The notes under the pieces are model-generated. The model did not search any database. It worked only from the letters and a program-made list of their open reading frames with translations, and had not been told where the DNA came from. The translations under genes were made by a program, and so were the position numbers. Below are positions 3,586-36,782 of a DNA stretch of 64,000 bases, one piece after another. The stretch spans positions 11,330 to 75,329 of the forward strand of contig JARLHZ010000022.1 of the NCBI GenBank assembly GCA_031291995.1. Direction: 5' to 3'. The stretch is from Candidatus Doudnabacteria bacterium (GTDB lineage: Bacteria; Patescibacteriota; Doudnabacteria; UBA920). How positions within the stretch are numbered: position 1 is the stretch's first letter; each line of letters starts with the position of its first letter.

Positions 3586-3659
3586 GTAATAAATTGCCAA
3601 TACTGTCTTAAGCCTTTCGACTTCGCTCAAGACGAGCGACAGTTGCAAAAACTTAAGCC

Positions 3660-3718
3660 GCCTGCCGGATGGCAGGCCAGCCTGCCTGGAAGGCAGGCCC
3701 GCCTGCCGATGAGGCAGG
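3660..3718. repeat. Array of three consecutive ~19-nt hairpin units (GCCTGCC-N4/5-GGCAGGC) in 3' UTR
   Basis: gcctgccGGATggcaggc / gcctgccTGGAAggcaggc / gcctgccGATGAggcagg, each self-complementary. A further hairpin, tcgctcAAGAcgagcga, lies at about 3623-3640. Confidence 0.6.
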
Positions 3719-3760
3719 AAAACGCCCCGCCCCTTCGCAAGAATGGGCGGGGTTGTTTTA
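3719..3760 (+). terminator. Rho-independent terminator sharing the TTCGCAAGAA loop with the terminator at 772-806
   Basis: CGCCCCGCCCC-TTCGCAAGAATG-GGCGGGG followed by TTGTTTT. Confidence 0.6.
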
Positions 3761-3770
3761 TAGAAGCAGA

Positions 3771-3793
3771 GTGGCAAAGGTGCTCTTTGCCAC
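3771..3793. repeat. REP unit (GTGGCAAAGGTGCTCTTTGCCAC, perfect-stem variant)
   Basis: Sequence match to the REP family seen at 821, 7951, 8621 and 34481. It lies about 10 nt after the terminator, as at 821. Confidence 0.7.
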
Positions 3794-3808
3794 GCTTTAA
3801 ATCCGTTG

Positions 3809-3838
3809 TTTGACTTAAGGGTAATTAATGGCTAAAAT
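3809..3838 (+). promoter_or_regulatory. Promoter TTGACT-18-TAAAAT for hicBA, positioned for a leaderless transcript
   Basis: The -10 element ends 7 nt before the ATG at 3845. No Shine-Dalgarno sequence is present. Confidence 0.4.
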
Positions 3839-3844
3839 TAGATT

Positions 3845-4105
3845 ATGAAAACTTTCCGATACAATTTAGTTTTTCAATCCGAACCGGAAGGCGGGTTTAC
3901 AGTAATTGTTCCGGCCCTGCCGGGGTGCGTTAGCTATGGAAAAAATTTAAAGCAGGCCAAAGCCATGGCTCAGGACGCCATTACCGGCTATCTGCAAAGT
4001 TTGCGTAAACACGGCAAAAATATTCCAAACGATAACGACAGTTTTATAACAGTTACGGAAGTCAGTTTGGAGGAGAATAAATTTAAAAAAATCTCTTATG
4101 CCTAA
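3845..4105 (+). CDS. hicB: HicB-family antitoxin (UPF0150)
   Basis: 86 aa. The motif 'FTVIVPALPGCVSYGKNLKQAKAMAQDAITGYL' is typical of HicB N-terminal domains. It overlaps the downstream hicA by 8 nt. Confidence 0.7.
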   Translation: MKTFRYNLVFQSEPEGGFTVIVPALPGCVSYGKNLKQAKAMAQDAITGYLQSLRKHGKNIPNDNDSFITVTEVSLEENKFKKISYA

Positions 4106-4313
4106 GCTCCCGGTTTTGACGGCAAGGAGAATTATCAAACTTCTTAAACGCAACGGTTTTATTCTTGATCACGCAACTGGCGCCCACTATATTTTTTATA
4201 ACGCTGCCCGTGACCGCCATGTGACGGTTCCTTATCATGCCAAGGATTTGCCAAAAGGGACACTGCTTTCCATCCTTGACCAAGCCGGGTTGGACAGAAA
4301 AGACATAATATAA
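4098..4313 (+). CDS. hicA: HicA-family mRNA interferase toxin
   Basis: 71 aa. 'LTARRIIKLLKRNGFILDHATGAHYIF...HVTVPYHAKDLPKGTLLSILDQAGL' matches the YcfA/HicA family. It is translationally coupled to hicB. Confidence 0.75.
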   Translation: MPKLPVLTARRIIKLLKRNGFILDHATGAHYIFYNAARDRHVTVPYHAKDLPKGTLLSILDQAGLDRKDII

Positions 4314-4630
4314 GCCAAAAGAGCAGAGTTATACTGCAATGGCCATTATTTTATTTTTTAGTCCAAAGTTACCACAAAATCCCTGTCACTTTAGAAGCTC
4401 TCCTGGCAAAAATGAAGGCCGAGGATAAGCAGAAAACCGTTTCTGTAGAACGCTTTGAGATGCTGGAAAAATGGGCTGTGTTGGTCGGTAAAAAATTGGC
4501 ATTGAGCTGGAATTGTAAAATTTAAAGAAAATCTGTGTAAAACTTTTGTAAATATGGGGAATTTATATATTTTTCCTTTATTTACAGAAGTTTTTTATTT
4601 AATTACTATAACCCTATGAGTAATTTAATT

Positions 4631-4656
4631 GCCGCCCCCTCCGGGCGGTTTTTGTT
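4631..4656 (+). terminator. Orphan intrinsic terminator (CCGCCC-CCTCC-GGGCGG + TTTTT) in a 410-bp gene-free region
   Basis: GC stem plus T-run with no annotated upstream gene. It may terminate a small RNA or peptide transcribed from 4320-4630. Confidence 0.4.
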
Positions 4657-4726
4657 CGGTAATACGTAAAAATATAAATTATGTATACTTTAAGAAGGTG
4701 TAAAAATTAATCCCAAAGGGAAAAAC

Positions 4727-5064: not shown

Positions 5065-7938
5065 ATGAAAAAAATATTATTTTGGTTGATTGTAATAATG
5101 CTTGTAACACCCGTATTTTCTTTTGCTGACTCAGGCGATGGCGGCGGTGGTAATCCACCGCAACCTTTTGAAGGGAACTGCGGATTTAATTATTGGTTAA
5201 GCAATGACGATAATATTTTTCAGGATTTCCATAGTCAGGAATATGTTAACGGACTATTAGAAATACATTTAATGTTCAACAGTACTACCGAAGGCTACAA
5301 TAATATTAACCACTATTTGGTTTTATATGACTCCGATTGCAATAAATATTTTTATTATGCGGATTTCGCGCAAGACCCGTCGTTAAATATTCCACCAAAT
5401 ACCAGCGGGGTTAGTTTGCGTTTTACGAGCCCAACACATTTTCAAGTTTGGGATGACGATCTTAATCAGCGCTTAGATTGCGACCAATGCGATGTTGATT
5501 TAAGTTCTTATGGTTTCCCTTCCGGCCTCCGCGCGTCTTTCCATCTTCAATTAAACGATTATGATAATAATAAGTACGATTGGGACTTTTCCGAAGGATT
5601 TCCGGTTCAGGAGCCGGTAACTGATCAAAAAACTCCGGTTTTAATAGTTCCCGGAATTTTAGGGACGAAAATAGTCAAACAAAGCGAGGTTTTGTGGCCG
5701 GATGTCGTGCGGATGGCGGCACCTTTAGGGGATGACAGTTTTATGGATCCTTTAATTTTAAACCCGGACGGTTCACCGTTGGATACAAGCGTTGCCATGC
5801 CGGACATTTTAAGGGAACCTTATCCAGGTGAGCATTTTTATGACGGGATAATTCAGTCGTTTATAGACCAGGGTTACGTAGAAAATAAAGATCTGTTTGT
5901 ATTTCCTTATGACTGGCGACAGGATATTTTCAAGACGGCTTATAATGAAGAGGAACAGGGTTTATCGTTAGACAAAAGAACCGACCTTGCGGGCAAAATA
6001 GATCAAATTTTGTCGAATACCGGAGCTGATAAAGTGGATATTATCGCTCATAGTCAGGGAGGTCTTGTTACTAAGCGCTTACTATTTGAGAAACCCTCAT
6101 ATCAGGATAAAATCCGCAAATTAGTTTTAGTAGGGGTTCCAAACTTTGGATCACCTCAAACCGCAAAGACTTTATTATATGGTGATAATATGGGAATAAT
6201 TTTCAAAAAGAACGGTATAAACCTAGGCCAACTAAACCCCGAAGAGTTAAAAAAAATGGGCCTGAATATGCCCTCGGCGTACGAATTATTGCCCAGTCCT
6301 TCTTATTTTCTCCATGAACCGCTTGGCTATATTTACGATTATTATCAATTTTACTTAAATACTTATCAGAAAAGCGCAAATTATTTAAAACAAAATAATT
6401 TAAACGGCCTTCTTATTGATAACGCCACAATTTTCCACGATTATAATTATGATAATTTTGATTTTAGTAAAACAGGAATTGAAACTTTTAACATAGTAGG
6501 TTGTGAGCAGGGGACGCTTGGCACATTGGTAACCAAAGCCAATGCAGATCAGCCGGGCTTATGGTTTACAGCCGGAGACGGTACGGTTCCTTTTAATTCC
6601 GCAAATCAGGCTAAAGGAGCAACAAGTTATTATATTCGGGGGGCAGTAGAGCATTCAAAAATGTTGAGTGATGCAAGTATTATGCCTTTAGCAACCGACT
6701 TGATAACAGGAGTTATTTTGCCGGCACCAGCTAATGTTGTCACAGATTCGTCCCAATGCCATTTCGATGGGACTGAAGTTTCCGTTCATAGCCCAGTCGA
6801 CTTAGATATTTATGATGAACATAACAATCATGTAGGTGTATCTAATAATGACAATAGTCCCTTTGTGGATTTGGGAGTTCCGGGGGCGCAATATGAAGAA
6901 ATAGGCCACAACAAGTTTGCTTTTTTACCGGCGGGACATACTTATAAGGTTCAGCTTAACGCGACCGGTGCGGGAAGTTTTAGTTTAGATTCTTCACAAA
7001 TTCAAAACGGGGGAGTGGTAGGAACCACACATTATGATTCAGTAAATATTACCGCCAGTTCAAAAGCGGAAGTAGATTTAACTTCGGGAAATAACCAGCC
7101 AATTAAACTTGATCTTAACGGCGACGGAACCGTTGACCAGACCATTCAGCCATCGTCCGTTCTTAATGCTGACCAGTCGCAGGATTTAGTCCCGCCGGTT
7201 TCTACTTCCACCATTGCGGGGATTATGGGGCAGGAGGGGTTTTATCGGAGTAATGCTACGGTTACATTGGTGGCCATTGACCCGCTTTTAGCCGGGCAGG
7301 AGAGCCAGACATCGGGAATTTTAAATATCCGCTATAGCCTGGACAACAGCGCGACCACAACTTACCAGAGTCCTGTAATTGTAACTGCCGAAGGGCCGCA
7401 TAGCATCAGTTTTTTTGCCACGGACAAAGCCGGGAATAACGAACCGGCGCAAACCGTCAGCTTTACCGTGGACAAGACCGCGCCGGAGGCAGTCATCCAG
7501 TTCAGCCCCAGCCTTAAAGACATCCAGTTTACCGGCAGCGACAATATTTCCACCACTTCCAAGGTCGCCGTACTGGACAAGGTTAACGATATTTTGTTAA
7601 CCGACCAGGCCGGCAACGTTACGGAAATAAAATTAAAAGAAAAAAACCGCAAAGCCAGTATGCAGTCCACCATCCAGTCGTTAAGCTACAACGGCACGGC
7701 TCAGGATGTCAGCAAGAACACCCTGGCGTTTGTTTGGCAATATGACAAAAAGAATAACCTAACCAAACTTACCCAAAACGTGGCCGCCAAAAAAACCTAT
7801 TATATTTTGGCCGTTTACAACGGCAAAAAAACCACCCTGGCCGGCCTCGACAAATCCGGCATAATTCTAAAATCTATTCCCGGTCTATCCCTGCTAAAAG
7901 TCACCACCAACAAAGGCGACTTGGGCTGGTCAATTTAA
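5065..7938 (+). CDS. Secreted alpha/beta-hydrolase lipase/esterase (PGAP1/LCAT-like, GxSxG = AHSQGG) with Cys-rich N-terminal region and C-terminal Ig-like (DKTAP-type) domains
   Basis: The ORF track starts at a TTG (5059). The first ATG is at 5065 (MKKILFWLIVIMLVTPVFSFA signal peptide). The motif 'PVLIVPGILGTK...DIIAHSQGGLVTKRL...LVGVPNFGSP' is typical of lipase class 2/PGAP1-like enzymes. Confidence 0.7.
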   Translation: MKKILFWLIVIMLVTPVFSFADSGDGGGGNPPQPFEGNCGFNYWLSNDDNIFQDFHSQEYVNGLLEIHLMFNSTTEGYNNINHYLVLYDSDCNKYFYYADFAQDPSLNIPPNTSGVSLRFTSPTHFQVWDDDLNQRLDCDQCDVDLSSYGFPSGLRASFHLQLNDYDNNKYDWDFSEGFPVQEPVTDQKTPVLIVPGILGTKIVKQSEVLWPDVVRMAAPLGDDSFMDPLILNPDGSPLDTSVAMPDILREPYPGEHFYDGIIQSFIDQGYVENKDLFVFPYDWRQDIFKTAYNEEEQGLSLDKRTDLAGKIDQILSNTGADKVDIIAHSQGGLVTKRLLFEKPSYQDKIRKLVLVGVPNFGSPQTAKTLLYGDNMGIIFKKNGINLGQLNPEELKKMGLNMPSAYELLPSPSYFLHEPLGYIYDYYQFYLNTYQKSANYLKQNNLNGLLIDNATIFHDYNYDNFDFSKTGIETFNIVGCEQGTLGTLVTKANADQPGLWFTAGDGTVPFNSANQAKGATSYYIRGAVEHSKMLSDASIMPLATDLITGVILPAPANVVTDSSQCHFDGTEVSVHSPVDLDIYDEHNNHVGVSNNDNSPFVDLGVPGAQYEEIGHNKFAFLPAGHTYKVQLNATGAGSFSLDSSQIQNGGVVGTTHYDSVNITASSKAEVDLTSGNNQPIKLDLNGDGTVDQTIQPSSVLNADQSQDLVPPVSTSTIAGIMGQEGFYRSNATVTLVAIDPLLAGQESQTSGILNIRYSLDNSATTTYQSPVIVTAEGPHSISFFATDKAGNNEPAQTVSFTVDKTAPEAVIQFSPSLKDIQFTGSDNISTTSKVAVLDKVNDILLTDQAGNVTEIKLKEKNRKASMQSTIQSLSYNGTAQDVSKNTLAFVWQYDKKNNLTKLTQNVAAKKTYYILAVYNGKKTTLAGLDKSGIILKSIPGLSLLKVTTNKGDLGWSI

Positions 7939-8614: not shown

Positions 8615-8620
8615 TTGGAA

Positions 8621-8670
8621 GTGTCAAAGGTGCTCTTTGCCACAGCTGTGGCAAAGAGCACCTTTGACAC
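8621..8670. repeat. REP doublet (inverted pair separated by AGCT) flanking the 3' side of RAYT
   Basis: GTGTCAAAGGTGCTCTTTGCCAC-AGCT-GTGGCAAAGAGCACCTTTGACAC, 6 nt after the RAYT stop. Confidence 0.75.
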
Positions 8671-8711
8671 TATCATGCATCTGTTGACGGGATGCGCGGT
8701 TTAAAATATAC

Positions 8712-8742
8712 TTTAGTTGAACAGTTGAACTGTTCAACTAAA
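8712..8742. promoter_or_regulatory. 31-nt near-perfect palindrome (TTTAGTTGAACAG-TTGAA-CTGTTCAACTAAA), likely TA operator
   Basis: 13-bp inverted arms with GTTGAAC triplets lie 20 nt upstream of the AbrB-type antitoxin. Autoregulated TA promoters typically carry such operators. Confidence 0.45.
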
Positions 8743-8762
8743 TATTAAATAGTCGTTTATTT

Positions 8763-9056
8763 ATGCCTATTGTTACCGTAAAAAATAAATATCAGGTGGT
8801 TATACCGCAGACTCTGCGGCAGCAGATTGGAGTTAATATTGGGGACTTAATGGAGGCCAAAGTGGAAAAGGGGAAAATTACTTTTACCCCAAAGACTCTT
8901 GTTGACAGCCTGGAAAGCCGGATTGCCGAGAGCATGGCAGACTATAAAGCCGGACGGTCTTACGGACCGTTTGAGACCGCGGATGAACTTATCGCGTCTT
9001 TAAAGGGTATGCTAAAAAAGCGCGCAGCTTTTAAAAAGAAACATAAGATTTTATAA
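8763..9056 (+). CDS. AbrB/MazE/SpoVT-family antitoxin
   Basis: 97 aa. 'PIVTVKNKYQVVIPQTLRQQIGVNIGDLME' forms a swapped-hairpin AbrB-type DNA-binding domain. Its stop overlaps the downstream toxin start (TAAATG). Confidence 0.6.
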   Translation: MPIVTVKNKYQVVIPQTLRQQIGVNIGDLMEAKVEKGKITFTPKTLVDSLESRIAESMADYKAGRSYGPFETADELIASLKGMLKKRAAFKKKHKIL

Positions 9057-9302
9057 ATGCGAGCCCGTTATTCAAAAGGATTTTTTGATGCGTTAGAAAT
9101 TGCTCCTGATGCAATAAAAAAAGCTTTTTTCAAACAAGTTCGTTTTTTGGTTGCCAATTTGCGACACCCATCTTTGCATGCCAAAAAATATGACGAAAGC
9201 GGCGATCTCTGGCAGGCCCGCGTAAATGACGATTGGAGATTGTACTTTACCATACAAGGAGACGAATACCGCCTGCACGACATAAAACCCCATCCAAAAT
9301 AG
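9057..9302 (+). CDS. RelE/YafQ-like mRNA interferase toxin
   Basis: 81 aa. The C-terminal 'HPSLHAKKY..G.LWQARVNDDWRLYFTIQGDEYRLHDIKPH' matches the YafQ/RelE pattern (hP..ykdh..G.w...R..hv.pDwlLiY....d.l.l.rtGtH). Confidence 0.55.
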   Translation: MRARYSKGFFDALEIAPDAIKKAFFKQVRFLVANLRHPSLHAKKYDESGDLWQARVNDDWRLYFTIQGDEYRLHDIKPHPK

Positions 9303-9410
9303 GCCAACTTGGCCTATTTTTATATTGTTGAAAGGAATATACAGCAAAACGTGCCGTTTTGCCGAAGTTTTGCTATAATAGCAATTACTATCCTTTAACA
9401 TGTATTTATT

Positions 9411-11693
9411 ATGGCGAAAACCGTTTATCAGTCGGGCACCACTAAAGTCGTTGGCGTTATTTTTTTTATTTTAGTCAGCTTGAGCCTGCTTGCGCCCCTG
9501 TGGGTGTTTCGGGATCTGTTGTTTCCCTACGTGACCAGTAAGGCGTTTTTTTTCAGGATTTGCCTGGAGCTGGCTTTGCCGTTTTATGTTTATTTGTTGA
9601 TTGTCCGTCCCGAACTGCGTCCCAAATGGCGGCGGCAGTATTTGAACTGGTTGATGATTGTGTTTTTAATTTTGAATCTGGTTTCCGCCCTTTGGGGTGA
9701 TGTCCCGACCAGAAGCCTCTGGGGAAATTTTGAACGCATGGGCGGCGTTTATTACATTGCCCATTTAACATTGTTATATTTTTACGCGATTGCCCTGGCC
9801 CAAATGGGCGGGTCTTATTTTAAACGTTTTTTGCAGGTATTTTTAGCCGGCGCCATGGTGGTAACCATAAACGGAATTTTCGGCAAGCTTGGCCTGCCGA
9901 CTCTGGTAATGGATCCGTCCCTGCCGGTCCGCGTGTCCAGCACTTTAGGGAACCCGATATATGTAGGCAGCTTTTTAATTGTCCCGATGTTTTTGGCCAT
10001 GTTTTTTGGCGGCCAGGCGGAAGAGGCCTGGCAGAAGTACGGTTACTATTTTTCCGCTTTCTTATTTTTTGTGGGCATAGTGCTAAGCGGCACCAGAGGA
10101 GCCATGGTCGGCCTGATTGCCGGGGTATTTTTAGCCGCCGTTGCTTATGTGATTTTTAACCCCAGCCGCAAATTGAGGCTTTACGGCGCGGGTGCAATCG
10201 GTATATTTGTCTTGCTTTGCGCTTTATTGTTCGCATTTAACAGCAAGCTGCCGCAGGGTGATTTTCAGCGTCTGTTCCACTTAAAAGACAGCAACACCTC
10301 CGCCCGCCTGGTGCAGTGGGGCGTGGCTCTAAAGGGCTATAAAGAGCATCCCTGGTTCGGGGTCGGACCGGAAAATTATTACATTATTTCCAACAAATAT
10401 TACAATCCGGCTATTTTTGTGTTTGACCGCAGCTGGTTCGATAAGCCTCACAATTACTGGATAGAGGTTTTGGTGACCGATGGCGTGTTTGCCTTTATCA
10501 CATATTTGGGGATTTTGTTGTTGCTTGCCTGGGCGCTTTATAAAGGATACCGCGGAGGGTTTTTAACCCTGACGGAATTCTCCCTGCTTTTGGCGGCTTT
10601 GCTGGCCTATCAAATCCAAAACCTAACCGTATTTGACACCGTGCCGGCCAGCATCGCCTTTTACTGCCTAATGGGTTTGGCCGGATTTATTTGGGACGCT
10701 CAATTATCATCGAACGGCGGAAACGGCAAGGCCGCTCCGACGCCAAAGTTTAAACCTGCCGACCCTATTCTGCCCGCGGCCGCTTTTGGCGCGGCTCTGG
10801 TAGTTGCCGCTTATTTGGTTTACTCCACCAATATCGTACCGATGGAAATTGCCAAAGCCGTTAACTATGGATACGCCTACAGCAGCGTAGATCCGGCAAA
10901 GGCCGATGAATATTTCCAGCGCGCGGTAACTTTGCCGTTTAATTTTGACAAAACCCAGGTCGCCCAAAAATACGCGGAATTTTCCATAAACCTGGAACGT
11001 TCAGCAACTACTGCGACCCAAGCTACGGCTTCTAAGGTTAGCGATGAATCCATAGCATTTTTAAACGAGGCCTTGGCAACGGAACCGCAATACCCGATTT
11101 TATGGCAGGAATTGGCCGAGGTCTATTTGTTCAAGAATATTCAAAACGGACGGCTGTCCAGTGTGGATCCCCATGCCGAGATTGATATTCAAAAGGCTAT
11201 TGCCCTGGCGCCCGGGCGGGAAGAGCCATTAATAACCGAGGCGCAAATTCAGGCTTCGGAAGGGAACCTGACGGGTTCGGAAAATATTTTGAAAAATTTG
11301 GAAGCGGAGTTTCCAACCGATAACACCATTCCGGCGCAACTGGCTACCATTAACCGCTTGGGCGGGAAAGCGGACGAGGCGGCGGCGAGCATGCAAAAAG
11401 CTTTGGACGCCGGTTACGCCGTAACTTCGGCCAGCGAAGCGCAGTGGCTGGTGGATTATTATGGAAGTAAAAAACAGTACCCGCAGGCCCTGGAGCTGGA
11501 GCTGAAAATCCAGGCCATAGATCCGAATAATCCGGACGTCTTGCTCGGCCTGGCTCAGCTGTACGCGCAAAACGGGCAAAATACCGAGGCTATTGCCGCG
11601 GCTCGCGCGGCGGAACAGAGCGACCCGACCAAACAAAAAGAAATAGAAGCGTTTATTACTTCCTTGGGCGGCGCGGCTACTACAACTAAATAA
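9411..11693 (+). CDS. O-antigen ligase/polymerase-like (Wzy_C) membrane protein fused to C-terminal TPR repeats
   Basis: 760 aa with about 10 TM helices. It carries a Wzy_C-like loop and a C-terminal 250 aa rich in TPR-like helices (ALAPGREEPL..., AIDPNNPDVLLGLAQLYAQNGQNTEAI). Confidence 0.7.
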   Translation: MAKTVYQSGTTKVVGVIFFILVSLSLLAPLWVFRDLLFPYVTSKAFFFRICLELALPFYVYLLIVRPELRPKWRRQYLNWLMIVFLILNLVSALWGDVPTRSLWGNFERMGGVYYIAHLTLLYFYAIALAQMGGSYFKRFLQVFLAGAMVVTINGIFGKLGLPTLVMDPSLPVRVSSTLGNPIYVGSFLIVPMFLAMFFGGQAEEAWQKYGYYFSAFLFFVGIVLSGTRGAMVGLIAGVFLAAVAYVIFNPSRKLRLYGAGAIGIFVLLCALLFAFNSKLPQGDFQRLFHLKDSNTSARLVQWGVALKGYKEHPWFGVGPENYYIISNKYYNPAIFVFDRSWFDKPHNYWIEVLVTDGVFAFITYLGILLLLAWALYKGYRGGFLTLTEFSLLLAALLAYQIQNLTVFDTVPASIAFYCLMGLAGFIWDAQLSSNGGNGKAAPTPKFKPADPILPAAAFGAALVVAAYLVYSTNIVPMEIAKAVNYGYAYSSVDPAKADEYFQRAVTLPFNFDKTQVAQKYAEFSINLERSATTATQATASKVSDESIAFLNEALATEPQYPILWQELAEVYLFKNIQNGRLSSVDPHAEIDIQKAIALAPGREEPLITEAQIQASEGNLTGSENILKNLEAEFPTDNTIPAQLATINRLGGKADEAAASMQKALDAGYAVTSASEAQWLVDYYGSKKQYPQALELELKIQAIDPNNPDVLLGLAQLYAQNGQNTEAIAAARAAEQSDPTKQKEIEAFITSLGGAATTTK

Positions 11694-16788: not shown

Positions 16789-16825
16789 GCGGATTTACTA
16801 AAATTTTTGATACCTATTGACACCT

Positions 16826-16863
16826 AAATACACCTCTTGATACAATTGAGGTGTATTTTTTTT
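16826..16863 (+). terminator. Intrinsic terminator (AATACACCTC-loop-GAGGTGTATT + T8)
   Basis: 10-bp stem followed by TTTTTTTT after the fcl stop. Confidence 0.5.
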
Positions 16864-16871
16864 GTATAATT

Positions 16872-17117
16872 ATGCCTGAAATAAAACCAAATGAAGTTTA
16901 TACTACGGAAGAAAGTCGAGTATTATTGAAGATTAGCAATAGCACCATTAAACGGATGCTGAAGAGTGGATTATTGCGTGCCAATAAAGTAGGAAAACAA
17001 TACCGGATTTTGGGACACGAACTCCTGAGATTGGTTTCGCCGGAAATTGAAGAAAAAGCAGTTGATGTTTACCAAAAAATTAAGACAACCGCCAGAGAAA
17101 AAACCAAAAATTGGTAA
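16872..17117 (+). CDS. Helix-turn-helix DNA-binding protein (excisionase/MerR-like HTH_17)
   Basis: The first ATG is at 16872 (MPEIKPNEVYTTEESRVLLKISNSTIKRMLKSGLLRANKVGKQYRI). This is an excisionase-family HTH signature. The ORF-track start at 16851 overlaps the terminator. Confidence 0.45.
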   Translation: MPEIKPNEVYTTEESRVLLKISNSTIKRMLKSGLLRANKVGKQYRILGHELLRLVSPEIEEKAVDVYQKIKTTAREKTKNW

Positions 17118-17195
17118 AAAATAATTGACAAAATTTTAAGACAGCAATTTTTGTCAGTTATATCAATTTTTTAAATTTTGTCATTGTAACTATTT

Positions 17196-31359: not shown

Positions 31360-32385
31360 ATGATTAATATCATTTCCAAAAGTTATTGCAGCCGGCTGGT
31401 TTCTGGGCCGAAGAAGGTTGTGGATAATTTAATTAAGGGCCTGGATTTAATCGGCTACCCGTATGTCGTCAATCGCCGACTGGATGCTTGCCGGAGATTA
31501 TGGATCCACGATGACGCCGCGGCCCTGAAAAAAATCAATAAACTGCCCGGCAATATTAAAGTTGTCCTTGGGCCGAATTTATTTGTTTTGCCCCGCCAGA
31601 TCCCGCCGGACATTAACCTGTCAGCTGCGGTGTACCTGCAGCCTTCAGACTGGGTCAGGAATTTTTGGAAAGAGTTTGGCTTTAATAAGTGCCCGATCGC
31701 GGTTTGGCCTGCCGGCATAGATACCGCGGAGTTTTCGCCGGTGCCGGCTCATAAGCGGCAAGTCATTCTTTATTATAAGCAGCGCCAGGCCGGGGAATTA
31801 GCTCAAGTAAAACGGGCTTTGAGCAGTAAAAATATCGGCTACCATGTGTTATACTATGGTAAATACTCGGAGAAAGATTATAAGAGACATTTGGCCTCCG
31901 CGCGCTATATGGTCTGGCTGGGCAGGCAGGAAAGCCAGGGTATAGCCCTGGAAGAGGCCTTGTCGGCGGATGTTCCTGTTATAGTATGCGACGTGAAAAA
32001 TTTGGGACACTGGTCGGCCAGCCAAAAAGAGATGGCGGTATTTAATCAGGGTGAAAACGCTTATGCGGGCGTCACCAGCTGTCCTTACTTTGACGCTTCC
32101 TGTGGCGTACAAATTAAAGATTTGGACGGCCTTGACCAGGCTTTGGAAGATATGGAAGCGGGGTGGAAAAATTTTCAGCCGCGGCGGTATGTATTAAACA
32201 ATCTAAGCTTGGAAAAACAGGCCAGGGATTTTGTCGGGATTTTCGGCAAATATTTTGGGTTGAGCTATGAAGATGGGCTTAAAGAAAGGTTGTTAAAAAA
32301 AGGGGATTGGGTTAATTCTTATCCGCTGGCCCGGGTTAAATTTTTTGTTAAAGATTTTACAAAGGGCTTCAATAATTTTAAATAA
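31360..32385 (+). CDS. Putative GT-B fold glycosyltransferase (divergent GT1/GT4-like)
   Basis: 341 aa. 'IAVWPAGIDTAEFSP' and 'ESQGIALEEALSADVPVIVCD' resemble the GT4 C-terminal EX7E region. The family assignment is weak. Confidence 0.4.
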   Translation: MINIISKSYCSRLVSGPKKVVDNLIKGLDLIGYPYVVNRRLDACRRLWIHDDAAALKKINKLPGNIKVVLGPNLFVLPRQIPPDINLSAAVYLQPSDWVRNFWKEFGFNKCPIAVWPAGIDTAEFSPVPAHKRQVILYYKQRQAGELAQVKRALSSKNIGYHVLYYGKYSEKDYKRHLASARYMVWLGRQESQGIALEEALSADVPVIVCDVKNLGHWSASQKEMAVFNQGENAYAGVTSCPYFDASCGVQIKDLDGLDQALEDMEAGWKNFQPRRYVLNNLSLEKQARDFVGIFGKYFGLSYEDGLKERLLKKGDWVNSYPLARVKFFVKDFTKGFNNFK

Positions 32386-32393
32386 TCGGAACG

Positions 32394-32642
32394 ATGATGG
32401 CTCTGAAACATTACATTTCCATTGCCCGGCCTAACCATTGGTTTAAAAATATTTTTATTTTGCCCGGGGTCATTTTGGCGACACTGCTGACCCATAAGTC
32501 CTGGCAGGAGGTTATTTTTAATTTATTTGTCGGTTTTTTGGTGGCATGTTTAATCGCTTCGGCAAATTATACCATTAACGAATGGCTGGATGCGGAGTTT
32601 GACCGGTATCATCCTTTAAGAGAGTTAATATCCCAATGGTGA
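32394..32642 (+). pseudogene. N-terminal fragment of a UbiA-family prenyl/phosphoribosyltransferase (decaprenyl-phosphate phosphoribosyltransferase-like), truncated at 82 aa
   Basis: 'ARPNHWFKNIFILPGVILA...ASANYTINEWLDAEFDRYHP' carries the first Asp-rich motif (NxxxDxxxD). The gene stops after 82 aa and is overlapped by the next gene. Full-length homologues are about 290 aa. Confidence 0.4.
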
Positions 32643-33367
32643 AAAAGACCTTGAAAAAAATTTGGCGGATGGTTTTGAACGCGTTAAGCGGCGCATTTTG
32701 GTATAGCAGAGATTTAATCCGCTACCGTCGGATTTTACGGCCTGCCGGGGATGCATTTTATTTGTTTCCTCGGATTTTTGACAAAAATCCTTCCTCCCAT
32801 ACTTTTGACAAACATTACGTTTATATGGATAGGTGGGCTTTTAAACATATAATGTCGGCCAGGCCGGCGGAACATGTGGACATTGGTTCTTCCATCCGGT
32901 TTTTATCTATGGCCAGTACCGTGGTCAAGTTGAAGTTTGTAGACATCAGACCGGTTCATTTGGATTTTGACAATTTTGAATGCATAGAAGGAAGTATTTT
33001 AAAACTGCCGTTTGCCGACAATTCCGTAGCGTCTTTATCCTGTCTGCACGTGGCGGAACACATCGGTCTTGGACGCTATGGCGACCCGCTTGACGTTGAT
33101 GGAACAAAAAATGCCTGCCGGGAACTGGCGCGAGTGTTATCGCCGGGAGGAAAATTATATTTTGCTTTACCGGTTGGCAAATCGGCAATTTATTTTAACG
33201 CGCACCGCGTGCATAGTCCGCAAACAATAGTTGAGTACTTTTCGGGCCTTAAGTTATTGAGTTTTGCCGCAGTCAATGATGCCGGGCATTTTATAGCGCA
33301 AGCTAAAACCCAGGATTTTTTAAACGCCAATTACTCCTGCGGGATGTTTGAATTCACAAAAATATAG
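32636..33367 (+). CDS. SAM-dependent methyltransferase (DUF268/Methyltransf_11-like)
   Basis: 243 aa. 'VDIGSSIRFLSMAS' and 'LSPGGKLYFALPVGK' are methyltransferase-fold signatures. Confidence 0.5.
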   Translation: MVKKTLKKIWRMVLNALSGAFWYSRDLIRYRRILRPAGDAFYLFPRIFDKNPSSHTFDKHYVYMDRWAFKHIMSARPAEHVDIGSSIRFLSMASTVVKLKFVDIRPVHLDFDNFECIEGSILKLPFADNSVASLSCLHVAEHIGLGRYGDPLDVDGTKNACRELARVLSPGGKLYFALPVGKSAIYFNAHRVHSPQTIVEYFSGLKLLSFAAVNDAGHFIAQAKTQDFLNANYSCGMFEFTKI

Positions 33368-33369
33368 CA

Positions 33370-33662
33370 ATGTCCATTAAGGAAAAAATTTACCAGCACT
33401 TTCGGCGGAAGACCAATACGACCAGTTTTATTCCGCAAATTGACGGGTTGAGGTTTTTAGTCATTATAATATCTCCCATTCCTACCCCCTGGATTATTTA
33501 TGGCATACTTTAGTTTTGCTTCCGGTTATCCTGATAATTTCCGCGGCCTTTTATCTGCTGATTGAGCGGCCATGCATGGATAAAGATTGGCCAACTAAAA
33601 TGTGGCATTGGTTAAAAATTTTTTTAAAGGTGCCGGTATTGCCCCGAATCAGCCAGAATTAG
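33370..33662 (+). pseudogene. Internally deleted acyltransferase-3 (OafA/O-acetyltransferase) family gene remnant
   Basis: The 47-aa ORF (33370-33513) 'MSIKEKIYQHFRRKTNTTSFIPQIDGLRFLVIIISPIP' matches the AT3 N-terminus (IP.lDGLR.lAi). A shifted frame at 33510-33662 encodes 'LVLLPVILIISAAFYLLIERPCM...', the typical AT3 C-terminus. About 250 aa of TM core is missing between them. Confidence 0.5.
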
Positions 33663-33674
33663 TAAAATAATGGA

Positions 33675-34481
33675 ATGCTAAAAAAGTTTTTAAAATTTTT
33701 ATCCGCCCCATTTTTGGGCAACAAATACCTGCAATGGTTTTATTCGGGGTTATTTTTTGTATCCTTAAAAGGCATGAATTTTGGCGGGGGCAGCAGTTAT
33801 GATGAAAGCGGCGAATCGTGGGTATTAAAAATGATGGCGCAAAAAATCTCTGAGCCGGCTATTATTTTTGACGGCGGCGCCAACCGGGGAAATTACGCCC
33901 TGATGGCCGATAAAATTTTAGGCGGACGCGGAACCGCGCCGCAAATTTACTGTTTTGAGCCTTCGGCCGAAACTTTTTCTCTTTTGGGAAAAAATCTCGG
34001 CGAACGAAAAAATATTCGGTTGATAAATCAAGGTTTGGGCGAGCGCGCAGGTTCTTTAACCCTTTACTCCAATGCTAAAGGGTCGGGCCTGGCCAGTGTT
34101 TATAATAGGGAACTTTTAGCAAGCGGCTCGGGTCCCCATTTGACCGAACAGGTCGGCATAATCAGCGTAGATGATTTTTGTACCCGTAATAAGATCGGGC
34201 ATATTGATTTGTTAAAACTGGACACAGAAGGCCACGAGTTGGCCGCTCTGCGCGGCGCGGCGCAAATGATAGCCCGGGGCGCCGTAGCCAATATCCAATT
34301 TGAGTTCGGCGGGACAGATATAGACGCCGGAGTATATTTTCGGGATTTTTACCGGCTGCTTTCGCCACGTTACCGGATTTTTCGAATTTTAAAAAATGGA
34401 CTCAGGCCGATTAATAAATATTCCGAATGGGATGAAATATTTATAACCACAAATTACTACGCAGAATTAAAAAGAAATTAG
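33675..34481 (+). CDS. FkbM-family SAM-dependent methyltransferase
   Basis: 268 aa. 'IFDGGANRGNYALMA...CFEPSAETFSLLGKNL' and 'IDLLKLDTEGHELAAL' are the FkbM domain hallmarks. Confidence 0.7.
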   Translation: MLKKFLKFLSAPFLGNKYLQWFYSGLFFVSLKGMNFGGGSSYDESGESWVLKMMAQKISEPAIIFDGGANRGNYALMADKILGGRGTAPQIYCFEPSAETFSLLGKNLGERKNIRLINQGLGERAGSLTLYSNAKGSGLASVYNRELLASGSGPHLTEQVGIISVDDFCTRNKIGHIDLLKLDTEGHELAALRGAAQMIARGAVANIQFEFGGTDIDAGVYFRDFYRLLSPRYRIFRILKNGLRPINKYSEWDEIFITTNYYAELKRN

Positions 34482-34503
34482 TGTCAAAGAGCACCTTTGA
34501 CAC
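34481..34503. repeat. REP unit (GTGTCAAAGAGCACCTTTGACAC, perfect palindrome variant)
   Basis: Same family as 821, 3771, 7951 and 8621. It lies immediately after the stop of the FkbM gene. Confidence 0.7.
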
Positions 34504-34512
34504 TACTGATTT

Positions 34513-35253
34513 ATGCCCAAAGTTTCCGTAAATATTTTAACCAAAAACCGCGCCGAGCGCTTAAAAAAAGCTCTGGAGTCGGTTTTGGCGCAGGGCTTTA
34601 AGGATTTTGAGGTTATTGTAGTTAATGACGGTTCTACCGATACGACCGCCGAAGTCTTAAAAAATTTTGCTTCCGTTCTGGACCTAAAAATTATCAGCCA
34701 TAACCTTTCGCTTGGTATTACTCAAAGCCGGCAGGAAGCTTTGGCGCTATCAACGGGGGATTACGTGGCTATTTTGGATGACGACGACGTTTGGCTAAAC
34801 CCCAATAAGCTAAAAAAACAGGCGGAGTTTTTGGACCACAACCCGAACTGTGTTTTAACCGGGGGCGGCATGGAAATTGACGGCGATGAAAATTCTTGTA
34901 TGGGCAAGTTCCGGCCCCAAAGCGACCGGGCCATCCGCAGTTCCATGTTGTTTAAAAACAATTTTTTTACCTCCACGGCCATGTTCCGGCGCGGGGCGGC
35001 CATACAGGCCGGGGGGTTTATCAGCCGGGGCGCGGACCTGGCCGAAGACTACGACCTCTGGCTGAGGCTGGGACTGCTCGGCCAATTTTATAATTTCCAT
35101 GAGGTATTTACCTTATACGCCAAACCGAAGTATAATAAGGAAAGGTTTAAGCGGTTTTTACAAAAGCAGCTGATGTTAATAGCAAAATACAAAAATGATT
35201 ACCCGGGCTTTTATTTAGCCAGCCTTATCCTCCGCCTCCGCTTAATTTTTTAA
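34513..35253 (+). CDS. Glycosyltransferase family 2
   Basis: 246 aa. 'VSVNILTKNRAERLKKALESVLAQGFKDFEVIVVNDGSTDTT' and the 'AILDDDD' DXD motif. Confidence 0.7.
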   Translation: MPKVSVNILTKNRAERLKKALESVLAQGFKDFEVIVVNDGSTDTTAEVLKNFASVLDLKIISHNLSLGITQSRQEALALSTGDYVAILDDDDVWLNPNKLKKQAEFLDHNPNCVLTGGGMEIDGDENSCMGKFRPQSDRAIRSSMLFKNNFFTSTAMFRRGAAIQAGGFISRGADLAEDYDLWLRLGLLGQFYNFHEVFTLYAKPKYNKERFKRFLQKQLMLIAKYKNDYPGFYLASLILRLRLIF

Positions 35254-35277
35254 ATCTCCCTCCTCGCCCCTAACTTT

Positions 35278-35312
35278 TAACTTGTCACTTGTCACTTGTA
35301 ACTTGTCACTAA
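35278..35312. repeat. Short tandem heptamer repeat (ACTTGTC/ACTTGTA x4-5) upstream of the initiating transferase
   Basis: aacttgtcacttgtcacttgtaacttgtcact lies directly 5' of the ATG at 35318. The preceding 25 nt are pyrimidine-rich (ctccctcctcgcccc). Confidence 0.5.
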
Positions 35313-35317
35313 TTCCC

Positions 35318-36628
35318 ATGTCCAAACCTGCCCTCCGTTTTTGGTTAATTGTCATCCCGACCGCCGCGATTTTTTATTTGAGCCTGCAGGCGACTCTGGT
35401 TTTGCGCTATCACGGTCAGCTGGCCTACGATGCTTTGGACGCGCACTACAAAATATTCAGCATAATATTTGTCATATGGCTGCTGGTCTTTTTTATCCAC
35501 GGCCTGTTCGATGTCCGGGTGTTTCGCCGCTACTCAAGCCTATTTTTTAATTTGGTTTCGGCCATGGCGGTCAACCTGCTGCTGGCCATTATATATTTTT
35601 ATTTCCAGCCGAATTTAATTTTGACCCCCAGGCGCATTTTGTTGTTATTGGTCGGCGTCGCCTTTGTCCTTATTTTGTTATGGTATTTGCTGGTCAAGTA
35701 TATTTTTAAAAGTCGGTTGTCCGAAGGTATTTACCTGTTTTCGTTCAACAACGAACTGTCGGAATTGGAAGGGGAAATTAAGGGACATGCATTTTTGGGT
35801 TTTCGCGTGCTTGGGCATTTAAATCAGCAAAGCCTGGGGCAAATGGCGCTGGACAAAAATTCCAGCATTATTTTTCCCGATAACCTTCAGGCCAGCCCGC
35901 AAACCGCGGAACAAATGTACCAGCTGCGGACCCTGGGCGTGCGGTTTTATAACCACAAAAGTTTTTACGAGCAGCTGCTGCGCCGCATATATCTTTCCCA
36001 AATTGACGAGCTGTGGTTTTTGGAAAACATAGATTATCAGGAAAAACGGTTTTATAACCTGGCAAAACGGGCCATGGATATTATTTTGGGGGCGATAGGC
36101 CTGATTTTCTTTTTGGCAAGCCTGCCATTCTGCGCCCTGTTGATTAAGCTGGCCGACCGGAAAGGCTCAATATTTTTTGTCCAGGAGCGGGTGGGCCGCG
36201 GCGGCAAGCTGTTTAAGGTTTACAAGTACCGAACCATGAATTCCTGGGGCGTGACCAATACCTGGACTTCGGCCAACGATCCGCGCATTACCGGGGTCGG
36301 CAAATTTTTACGGAAGAGCCGTATAGACGAATGGCCGCAGTTTATAAATTTGTTGTTTGGGCACATGAGCCTGGTCGGGCCCCGTCCCGAACAGCCCCAT
36401 ATTGTGGAAGAGTTAAAAAAGCAAATCCCGTTTTACGATGAGCGTCACCTGGTTAAACCCGGTCTGACCGGCTGGGCGCAAATTAACAACATCTACGCCG
36501 CCAGCCTGGAAGAAACCAGAACCAAGCTCCAGTACGACCTCTACTATATTAAGCACCGCAGTCTGCTGTTTGATTTGGAAATAATTTTAAAAACCATCTA
36601 CTATATATTTACCTGGCAGGGGAGATAA
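35318..36628 (+). CDS. Polyprenyl-phosphate sugar phosphotransferase (WbaP/EpsB-type initiating glycosyltransferase, bacterial sugar transferase family)
   Basis: The first ATG is at 35318 (the ORF-track start at 35282 is a TTG inside the repeat). There are five N-terminal TM helices. The C-terminal 'KRAMDIILGAIGLIFFLASLPF...FVQERVGRGGKLFKVYKYRTM...DEWPQFINLLFGHMSLVGPRPE' is the canonical PF02397 domain. Confidence 0.8.
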   Translation: MSKPALRFWLIVIPTAAIFYLSLQATLVLRYHGQLAYDALDAHYKIFSIIFVIWLLVFFIHGLFDVRVFRRYSSLFFNLVSAMAVNLLLAIIYFYFQPNLILTPRRILLLLVGVAFVLILLWYLLVKYIFKSRLSEGIYLFSFNNELSELEGEIKGHAFLGFRVLGHLNQQSLGQMALDKNSSIIFPDNLQASPQTAEQMYQLRTLGVRFYNHKSFYEQLLRRIYLSQIDELWFLENIDYQEKRFYNLAKRAMDIILGAIGLIFFLASLPFCALLIKLADRKGSIFFVQERVGRGGKLFKVYKYRTMNSWGVTNTWTSANDPRITGVGKFLRKSRIDEWPQFINLLFGHMSLVGPRPEQPHIVEELKKQIPFYDERHLVKPGLTGWAQINNIYAASLEETRTKLQYDLYYIKHRSLLFDLEIILKTIYYIFTWQGR

Positions 36629-36782
36629 CGTAGTAATCGCAAAGATACGAATCTTAATTAATATACAAAACCGTCAGTTGTAGGCAAGTCGGGATAGAAA
36701 AGATAACTTACAGTGTACGGCTTCGTATATTAATATTAATTTGTATATTCGCGATTACTCGTATATTCGCGATTACTACTAT

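Follow-up and report, generated by a model that had tools for sequence, protein, structure and literature searches.

Probable dead remnants of an acyltransferase-3 gene and a UbiA-family gene in a surface-glycan locus of Candidatus Doudnabacteria

Short open reading frames (ORFs) on either side of a methyltransferase gene in a surface-glycan locus raise the question of whether they are dead pieces of larger genes, small genes in use or products of faulty assembly. We addressed this question in a 64-kb stretch of DNA (hereafter the window; G+C content, 45.7%) from a metagenome-assembled genome (MAG) of Candidatus Doudnabacteria (Patescibacteria/CPR). Positions 12.9–37.5 kb form a single + strand locus, about 25 kb long, for the biosynthesis of a surface glycan, and because of this gene content the label "glycan locus", used in an earlier note on this sequence, is correct. 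The first part of the locus encodes a GDP-mannose dehydratase, epimerases, a Wzx-type flippase, a nucleotidyltransferase, a NeuB-like protein, a TPP enzyme, a DHQS-like protein and a DegT aminotransferase, followed by GT2, GT10 and GT2 proteins, a methyltransferase and a GT4-like protein; then come the two remnants flanking a DUF268-type methyltransferase, an FkbM methyltransferase, a GT2 protein, Bac_transf and another methyltransferase. A Wzy_C/TPR protein (9411–11693) is encoded upstream of the locus. Both remnants sit toward its 3′ end, and we consider it highly likely that they are the dead remains of an acyltransferase-3 (AT3) gene that suffered an internal deletion and of a UbiA gene that was truncated at a module boundary.

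The genes around the remnants are intact. The variable upstream part ends, as far as complete genes go, with that of a GT4-like glycosyltransferase of 341 aa (31360..32385, +), and the UbiA remnant follows it directly. Between the remnants lies the gene for a 243-aa DUF268-type SAM methyltransferase (32636..33367, +; Pfam DUF268, 2.8e-13), which has its native N-terminus. Downstream on the + strand are the FkbM-family methyltransferase (33675–34481), the GT2 glycosyltransferase (34513–35253) and the initiating phosphoglycosyl transferase Bac_transf (35282–36628), all three assigned by Pfam and NCBIfam. The DUF268 methyltransferase, AT3, the FkbM methyltransferase, GT2 and Bac_transf make up a conserved block of five genes, with the DUF268 methyltransferase as the first. 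Scans for promoters and terminators told little about the region: 8 promoter-like sites turned up where 6.2 were expected, and 11 terminator-like sites where 5.4 were (sd 2.3). The window is tightly packed except for three stretches devoid of ORFs of at least 100 aa, at 3586–4726 (1141 nt), 8615–9410 (796 nt) and 16789–17195 (407 nt), which might hold small genes, RNAs or more remnants.

The ORF upstream of the methyltransferase (32394..32642, +) encodes 82 amino acids and had been read in the earlier note as a truncated, DPPR-synthase-like UbiA transferase with the first Asp-rich motif. Our comparisons bear this out. The best-matching model was NCBIfam NF008977 (decaprenyl-phosphate phosphoribosyltransferase; E 8e-12, 45 bits against a cut-off of 234, profile positions 2–71 of 297), and Pfam UbiA (PF01040) matched at E 3.5e-5 (23.7 bits against a cut-off of 34.2, profile positions 2–52 of 250). 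The ORF stays below the Pfam gathering score because it is short; only the N-terminal quarter of the family is matched, and the curated cut-offs for whole-domain membership are not reached. In a word-indexed search of 5.8 billion sequences, 46 UbiA-type proteins matched the 82-aa query with 45–63% identity and E values down to 5e-24. This search gave only proteins of at most 144 aa, many of them from contigs of a few hundred bases, and full-length relatives were therefore extracted from 80 metagenome loci. All 71 complete relatives were 296–508 aa long (mostly 306–330 aa), and the remnant was 50–63% identical to the intact relatives of 296–346 aa that it matched. In an alignment of 27 sequences it retains 16 of the 16 invariant N-terminal columns; it leaves the consensus HPxKKxRPSV after HPLR. 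The first Asp-rich motif, N-x-x-x-D-x-x-x-D, is present as N62-E-W-L-D66-A-E-F-D70, and its columns are invariant in the same alignment. Via a full-length relative, this NEWLDAEFD aligns to NDVRDVEAD of the decaprenyl-phosphate phosphoribosyltransferase structure 8j8j. One full-length relative matches that structure at E 1.9e-15, which makes the intact relatives only distant from the mycobacterial DPPR synthase and their substrate assignment putative.

Homology to UbiA is confined to codons 1–76/77 (32394–32624), a stretch with predicted membrane helices 1 and 2 and the first Asp-rich motif. The end of the ORF, codons 77/78–82 (ELISQW) plus the TGA stop, is non-homologous, and the TGA overlaps the methyltransferase ATG at 32636 by 7 nt (ATGGTGA); the earlier note had observed that the next gene overlaps this ORF. 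A tblastn search with full-length relatives, which that note had proposed, placed the end of the match at the same point: 65 of 72 N-terminal alignments stopped at 32621–32627, 54 of these at 32624. No further part of the UbiA protein was found across the 64-kb window or in comparison loci L005–L043. The best other UbiA-like match in the window (6949–7170, E 0.004) falls in an unrelated LCAT/hexosaminidase-type protein and was rejected as chance. UbiA enzymes have a second Asp-rich motif and about 8–9 membrane helices. The ORF, which ends at residue 82, has neither that motif nor the full helix set; about two of nine helices, the first of two Asp-rich motifs and 25% of the protein remain. Judged by its sequence, the predicted product is excluded from UbiA catalysis, because it lacks some three quarters of the protein, the second motif among them. 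The remnant resembles DPPR synthase (8j8j, NF008977) in its two N-terminal helices and first Asp-rich motif, and differs from it in being a fragment with no partner genes adjoining. Near the intact UbiA relatives, a HAD-type hydrolase/phosphatase follows in 3 of 10 loci inspected (L058, L089 and L092), and large polytopic membrane proteins flank the relative in L047 (DUF6044) and L108 (PMT_2-like); L054 was also among the UbiA-relative loci whose neighbours were noted. Such HAD and polytopic neighbours suggest a putative lipid-linked pentose donor module.

On the other side of the methyltransferase, the earlier note had recognized the N- and C-terminal ends of an AT3 protein in different frames within 33370–33662, with the core missing. 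Pfam and NCBIfam scans of both pieces gave no match, PF01757 included, and the family assignment comes from direct comparison with relatives. Residues 1–34 of a 47-aa ORF starting at 33370 are 62% identical (21/34) to the N-terminus of the PF01757 protein P0048, with which a full phmmer search gave about 100 full-length relatives of 350–440 aa, P0050 (401 aa) being the best. Residues 5–34 of P0050 align to 33382–33471 with 70% identity, and its residues 342–401 align in another frame to 33477–33656 with 55% identity (E 1e-23, in a small search), in agreement with the two-ended arrangement described before. About 300 codons that should separate the two aligned stretches are absent. The 5′ remnant (33370..33464, +) consists of the native start and codons 1–32, among them those for IPQIDGLRFL, the motif that contributes the Arg of R-X10-H, and continues out of frame as the 47-aa ORF to a TAG at 33511–33513. 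The 3′ remnant (33465..33662, +) corresponds to about codon 334 to the end of the 404-aa orthologue in locus L008 (YNISHSYPLDYLW...FYLLIERPCMDKDWP...) and is in the frame of a 48-aa ORF at 33516; its stop (33660–33662) falls in the poorly conserved C-terminal tail, as do the stops of the orthologues.

To define the ancestral state we scanned one genome per species with P0050, which gave 36 loci. In four Patescibacteria genomes (L008–L011, of which L008 and L010 are labelled Doudnabacteria), an intact AT3 gene of 398–404 aa directly follows an orthologue of the window's DUF268 methyltransferase (67–71% identity over the full length). The gene order in these four is GT4, DUF268 methyltransferase, AT3, GT2 and Bac_transf, with FkbM between AT3 and GT2 in L010 and L011. 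The spacing between AT3 and FkbM is also tight, the AT3 stop lying 12 nt before the FkbM start in the window and 9 nt before it in L011. The AT3 start codon lies 13–58 nt past the last aligned methyltransferase residue in L008–L011, and the methyltransferase ends 2 nt before it in the window. The 5′ piece is 82% identical to the L008 AT3 over 34 aa, and the 3′ piece is 69% identical to both L008 and L011. Descent from AT3 is evident in that both termini match the same full-length proteins and occupy the orthologous genomic slot. Since L008–L011 hold an intact AT3 in this slot, comparison of the loci directly supports a deletion in place, and for AT3 the deletion that the earlier note had proposed stands. 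No sister strain with the undeleted ancestral state was found, the nearest genomes being only about 70% identical in protein. A 3′ block common to several Patescibacteria, with FkbM optional, is seen at 32636–36628 of the window and at about 9150–14700 of L008–L011, and the upstream genes differ. In a gammaproteobacterial MAG (L014), GT4, a DUF268 methyltransferase (40% identity) and AT3 also lie close together.

Alignment of the nucleotide sequence with the four intact orthologues produced a single gap of ~910 columns with flanks of 54–69% identity and placed the junction at 33464/33465 (±3 nt). Measured against the L008 protein (404 aa), the window lacks codons 33–333 and one extra base, about 904 nt (about 300 codons), and because this length is not divisible by three the ends are joined out of frame. 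At the breakpoints we found only a near-repeat of 7–8 nt (TTAGCCAT / TTACCAT), seen in L008, from which the true ancestor may differ. On the reading that we favour, a stand-alone AT3 gene of about 400 aa once lay between the DUF268-type and FkbM methyltransferase genes, and a single internal deletion of ~904 nt removed codons 33–333 and created the out-of-frame junction. The native ATG with the first 32 codons survives at one end and, at the other, the last ~65 codons with the stop in the tail.

The AT3 family is described as having an "absolutely conserved" R-X10-H in helix 1, an RXXR in helix 3 and a ten-helix domain (PMC9833829). The intact orthologues have these features: one matches PF01757 at 3e-33, and L008–L011 contain R-X10-H of the R28...H39 type (the His is H39 in L008–L010 and H40 in L011) together with RRLTR. 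They are about 400 aa long and, with both motifs and a typical position within a glycan locus, resemble stand-alone AT3 (PF01757) carbohydrate O-acyltransferases (PMC9558356, PMC9833829). The earlier attribution to "OafA/acyltransferase-3" was right as to AT3 and needs amending as to OafA, because the gene is of the stand-alone kind and, unlike OafA/OafB, which are AT3-SGNH fusions, has no SGNH domain. Unlike an intact stand-alone AT3, the window copy is down to about 97 of about 400 codons, split between two frames. R28 is kept (IDGLRFL), the family sequence is left after residue 32, the His is deleted, and RRLTR falls within the absent codons 33–333. With the His, RXXR and most of the ten helices gone, acyl transfer by the window AT3 is not possible, as far as its predicted protein tells, from which we infer that the glycan of this locus has lost an AT3-dependent acylation, probably O-acetylation.

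The earlier note had called the losses recent, and the state of the pieces agrees with this. Of 36 positions that five intact relatives have in common, the AT3 remnant matches 34 and differs at two (A to V, I to V). Its identity to these relatives is 48–67%, and theirs among themselves over the same columns is 53–66%, so that its divergence does not exceed that among intact orthologues. The UbiA remnant, as noted, has all 16 of its invariant columns. Neither secondary stops nor frameshifts occur within the remnant pieces. Because the remnants show no extra decay, both events appear recent, in the relative rather than absolute sense of being later than the split from the nearest available genomes (~70% protein identity).

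The UbiA piece has a different relation to its surroundings. Its homology ends immediately upstream of the methyltransferase start codon, defining a breakpoint zone at 32622..32635 (+); the last homologous codon, 76–77, lies about 12 nt before this start, which is the left edge of the conserved block. Just upstream of the start, the DNA is unrelated among the window and L008–L011, and the methyltransferase N-termini align. The GT4 at the corresponding position in L008–L011 is only 26–30% identical to the window GT4-like protein. None of the loci L005–L043 has a UbiA gene within 10 kb, none of the 80 UbiA loci showed synteny with genes of the window, and among the GT4-like, AT3 and UbiA loci no UbiA gene adjoins a GT4-like or methyltransferase gene of the window type. 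The GT4-like gene itself was tried as a synteny anchor and rejected, as its homologues, with 98–100% length coverage, are at most 59% identical and their loci (L005–L007) lack both UbiA and AT3. Because the relatives' loci are without UbiA and the piece ends ~12 nt from the edge of the conserved block, we infer from its position that it marks a recombination or deletion boundary and is boundary debris, not a conserved locus member decaying in place. A UbiA gene of the polyprenyl-phosphate phosphoribose-making type would have been cut after codon 76–77 by a recombination or deletion breakpoint that fell inside it at the module boundary. As the donor arrangement was not found, position is also what points to the source and the mechanism. 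If a lipid-linked pentose donor step was once encoded in the locus, it would have been lost with the truncation.

A single event could in principle account for both lesions, if a DUF268 methyltransferase cassette had been inserted and had disrupted a former UbiA–AT3 arrangement. The methyltransferase does lie exactly between the remnants, overlapping the UbiA stop by 7 nt and ending 2 nt before the AT3 start. However, its adjacency to AT3 is ancestral, with intact AT3 in L008–L011. The AT3 lesion, moreover, is internal, with the native start and the C-terminal end and stop in place, so it is not a by-product of a neighbouring insertion. We therefore regard a one-step insertion as extremely improbable and retain two separate lesions, an internal deletion in AT3 and a truncation of UbiA at the module boundary.

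The window comes from a MAG, and a repeat collapse or a chimeric join in assembly or binning might have mimicked both lesions while the genes are intact in the organism, the outcome that the earlier note had named as its refutation. We looked up the exact proteins in Logan contigs, and those from five separately assembled runs (SRR23300977, 978, 980, 985 and 986) were 100% identical to the window, and every contig that reached a junction crossed it intact. These runs are apparently from one study and one identical strain; they exclude random assembly error, and a minority intact allele could still occur in the population. Among the contigs with identical flanking proteins only the deleted AT3 form was present, and no intact allele was found. 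Some Logan contigs do break within neighbouring intact genes, that of SRR23300980 at 32772–32795 (DUF268 methyltransferase) and that of SRR23300985 at 34192–34200 (FkbM methyltransferase), in single runs in each case, where low coverage or minor strain variation could be responsible; none breaks at either junction. A search of the region for long direct repeats able to explain deletions or collapse gave none, the intact orthologues showing only the short near-repeat at the deletion ends. The chance that the lesions are artefacts of assembly or binning is accordingly very small. As disabling lesions that recur across assemblies, an out-of-frame 0.9-kb deletion in AT3 and the loss of 75% of the length in UbiA mark both genes as probable pseudogenes. 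Farther downstream, the Logan contigs of all five runs end exactly at 36676, in the spacer between the Bac_transf stop at 36628 and the methyltransferase at 36741, where the MAG contig continues; a 17-nt unit (GTATATTCGCGATTACT x2) is repeated in tandem at about 36743–36776. A fork between strains, or a repeat that borders the conserved block on the right, may explain this contig end.

Gene finders still predict both remnant ORFs, which remain open, and a residual role for them would be formally conceivable. They might be short functional ORFs under selection, the 82-aa two-helix peptide serving as a coupled upstream ORF or a small membrane protein and the 47- and 48-aa ORFs encoding small peptides. 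The 82-aa ORF has a native start codon, keeps all of the invariant UbiA residues and overlaps the methyltransferase start. By eye, the upstream GT4 in L008 and L011 also appears to reach or overrun the methyltransferase start, and a strong Shine-Dalgarno sequence is absent before this start in every genome, so that coupling may matter. Yet a recent event accounts just as well for the conserved residues being kept, and no other lineage has a UbiA-type ORF ending there, given that every complete relative is at least 296 aa long. The cluster containing the 82-aa protein holds this organism only, and most of the short database matches are either partial sequences from contigs no longer than a few kilobases, some only a few hundred bases, or reads with frameshifts. 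The 47-aa ORF, for its part, has a nonsense, out-of-frame tail. Selection for short functional products is improbable on this evidence, and we keep to the reading of both ORFs as dead gene pieces. Three UbiA N-terminal "proteins" on longer contigs (P0003, P0027 and P0031) become apparently frameshifted soon after the HPxKK motif, which may point to errors of sequencing or to more truncated copies, carried by other organisms.

Comparable losses are on record in cultivated bacteria. Mutated or deleted O-acetyltransferase genes can create new serotypes, examples being oafA variation in Salmonella Typhimurium (PMC9426603) and pneumococcal capsule type 33E, reported to have arisen via wciE inactivation (PMC10462825). 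The Doudnabacteria locus is like O-antigen and capsule loci in combining a conserved end with a variable middle, in having a modification enzyme knocked out with the rest of the pathway intact, and in carrying a gene fragment at a module boundary. It is unlike them in that the host is an uncultivated CPR bacterium, for which the effect on phenotype is a prediction from the genes. The lesions might be the trace of recent adaptive glycan editing in an episymbiotic CPR bacterium, with the loss of an acyl group and the swap of a sugar module favoured by, for example, phage escape or host attachment, and with the UbiA stub kept open for coupling to the methyltransferase; we hold this to be unlikely.

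The remnants are clean but ordinary wear of a mosaic, fast-shuffling polysaccharide locus; they open no new mechanism and settle no open question, and their relevance is mainly to annotation and strain-level ecology. The 82-aa ORF, which is identical to the NCBI entry P4L74_03320 (Candidatus Doudnabacteria MAG, 102-kb contig) and stands as a hypothetical protein in that public record, and the 47-aa ORF, a gene-finder call in the Logan contigs, should be flagged as pseudogene pieces. Strain-level surface variation, which the earlier note had suggested, is plausible. The finding documents that CPR glycan loci evolve in the manner known from O-antigen and capsule loci in cultivated bacteria, by exchanging modules and shedding modification genes.
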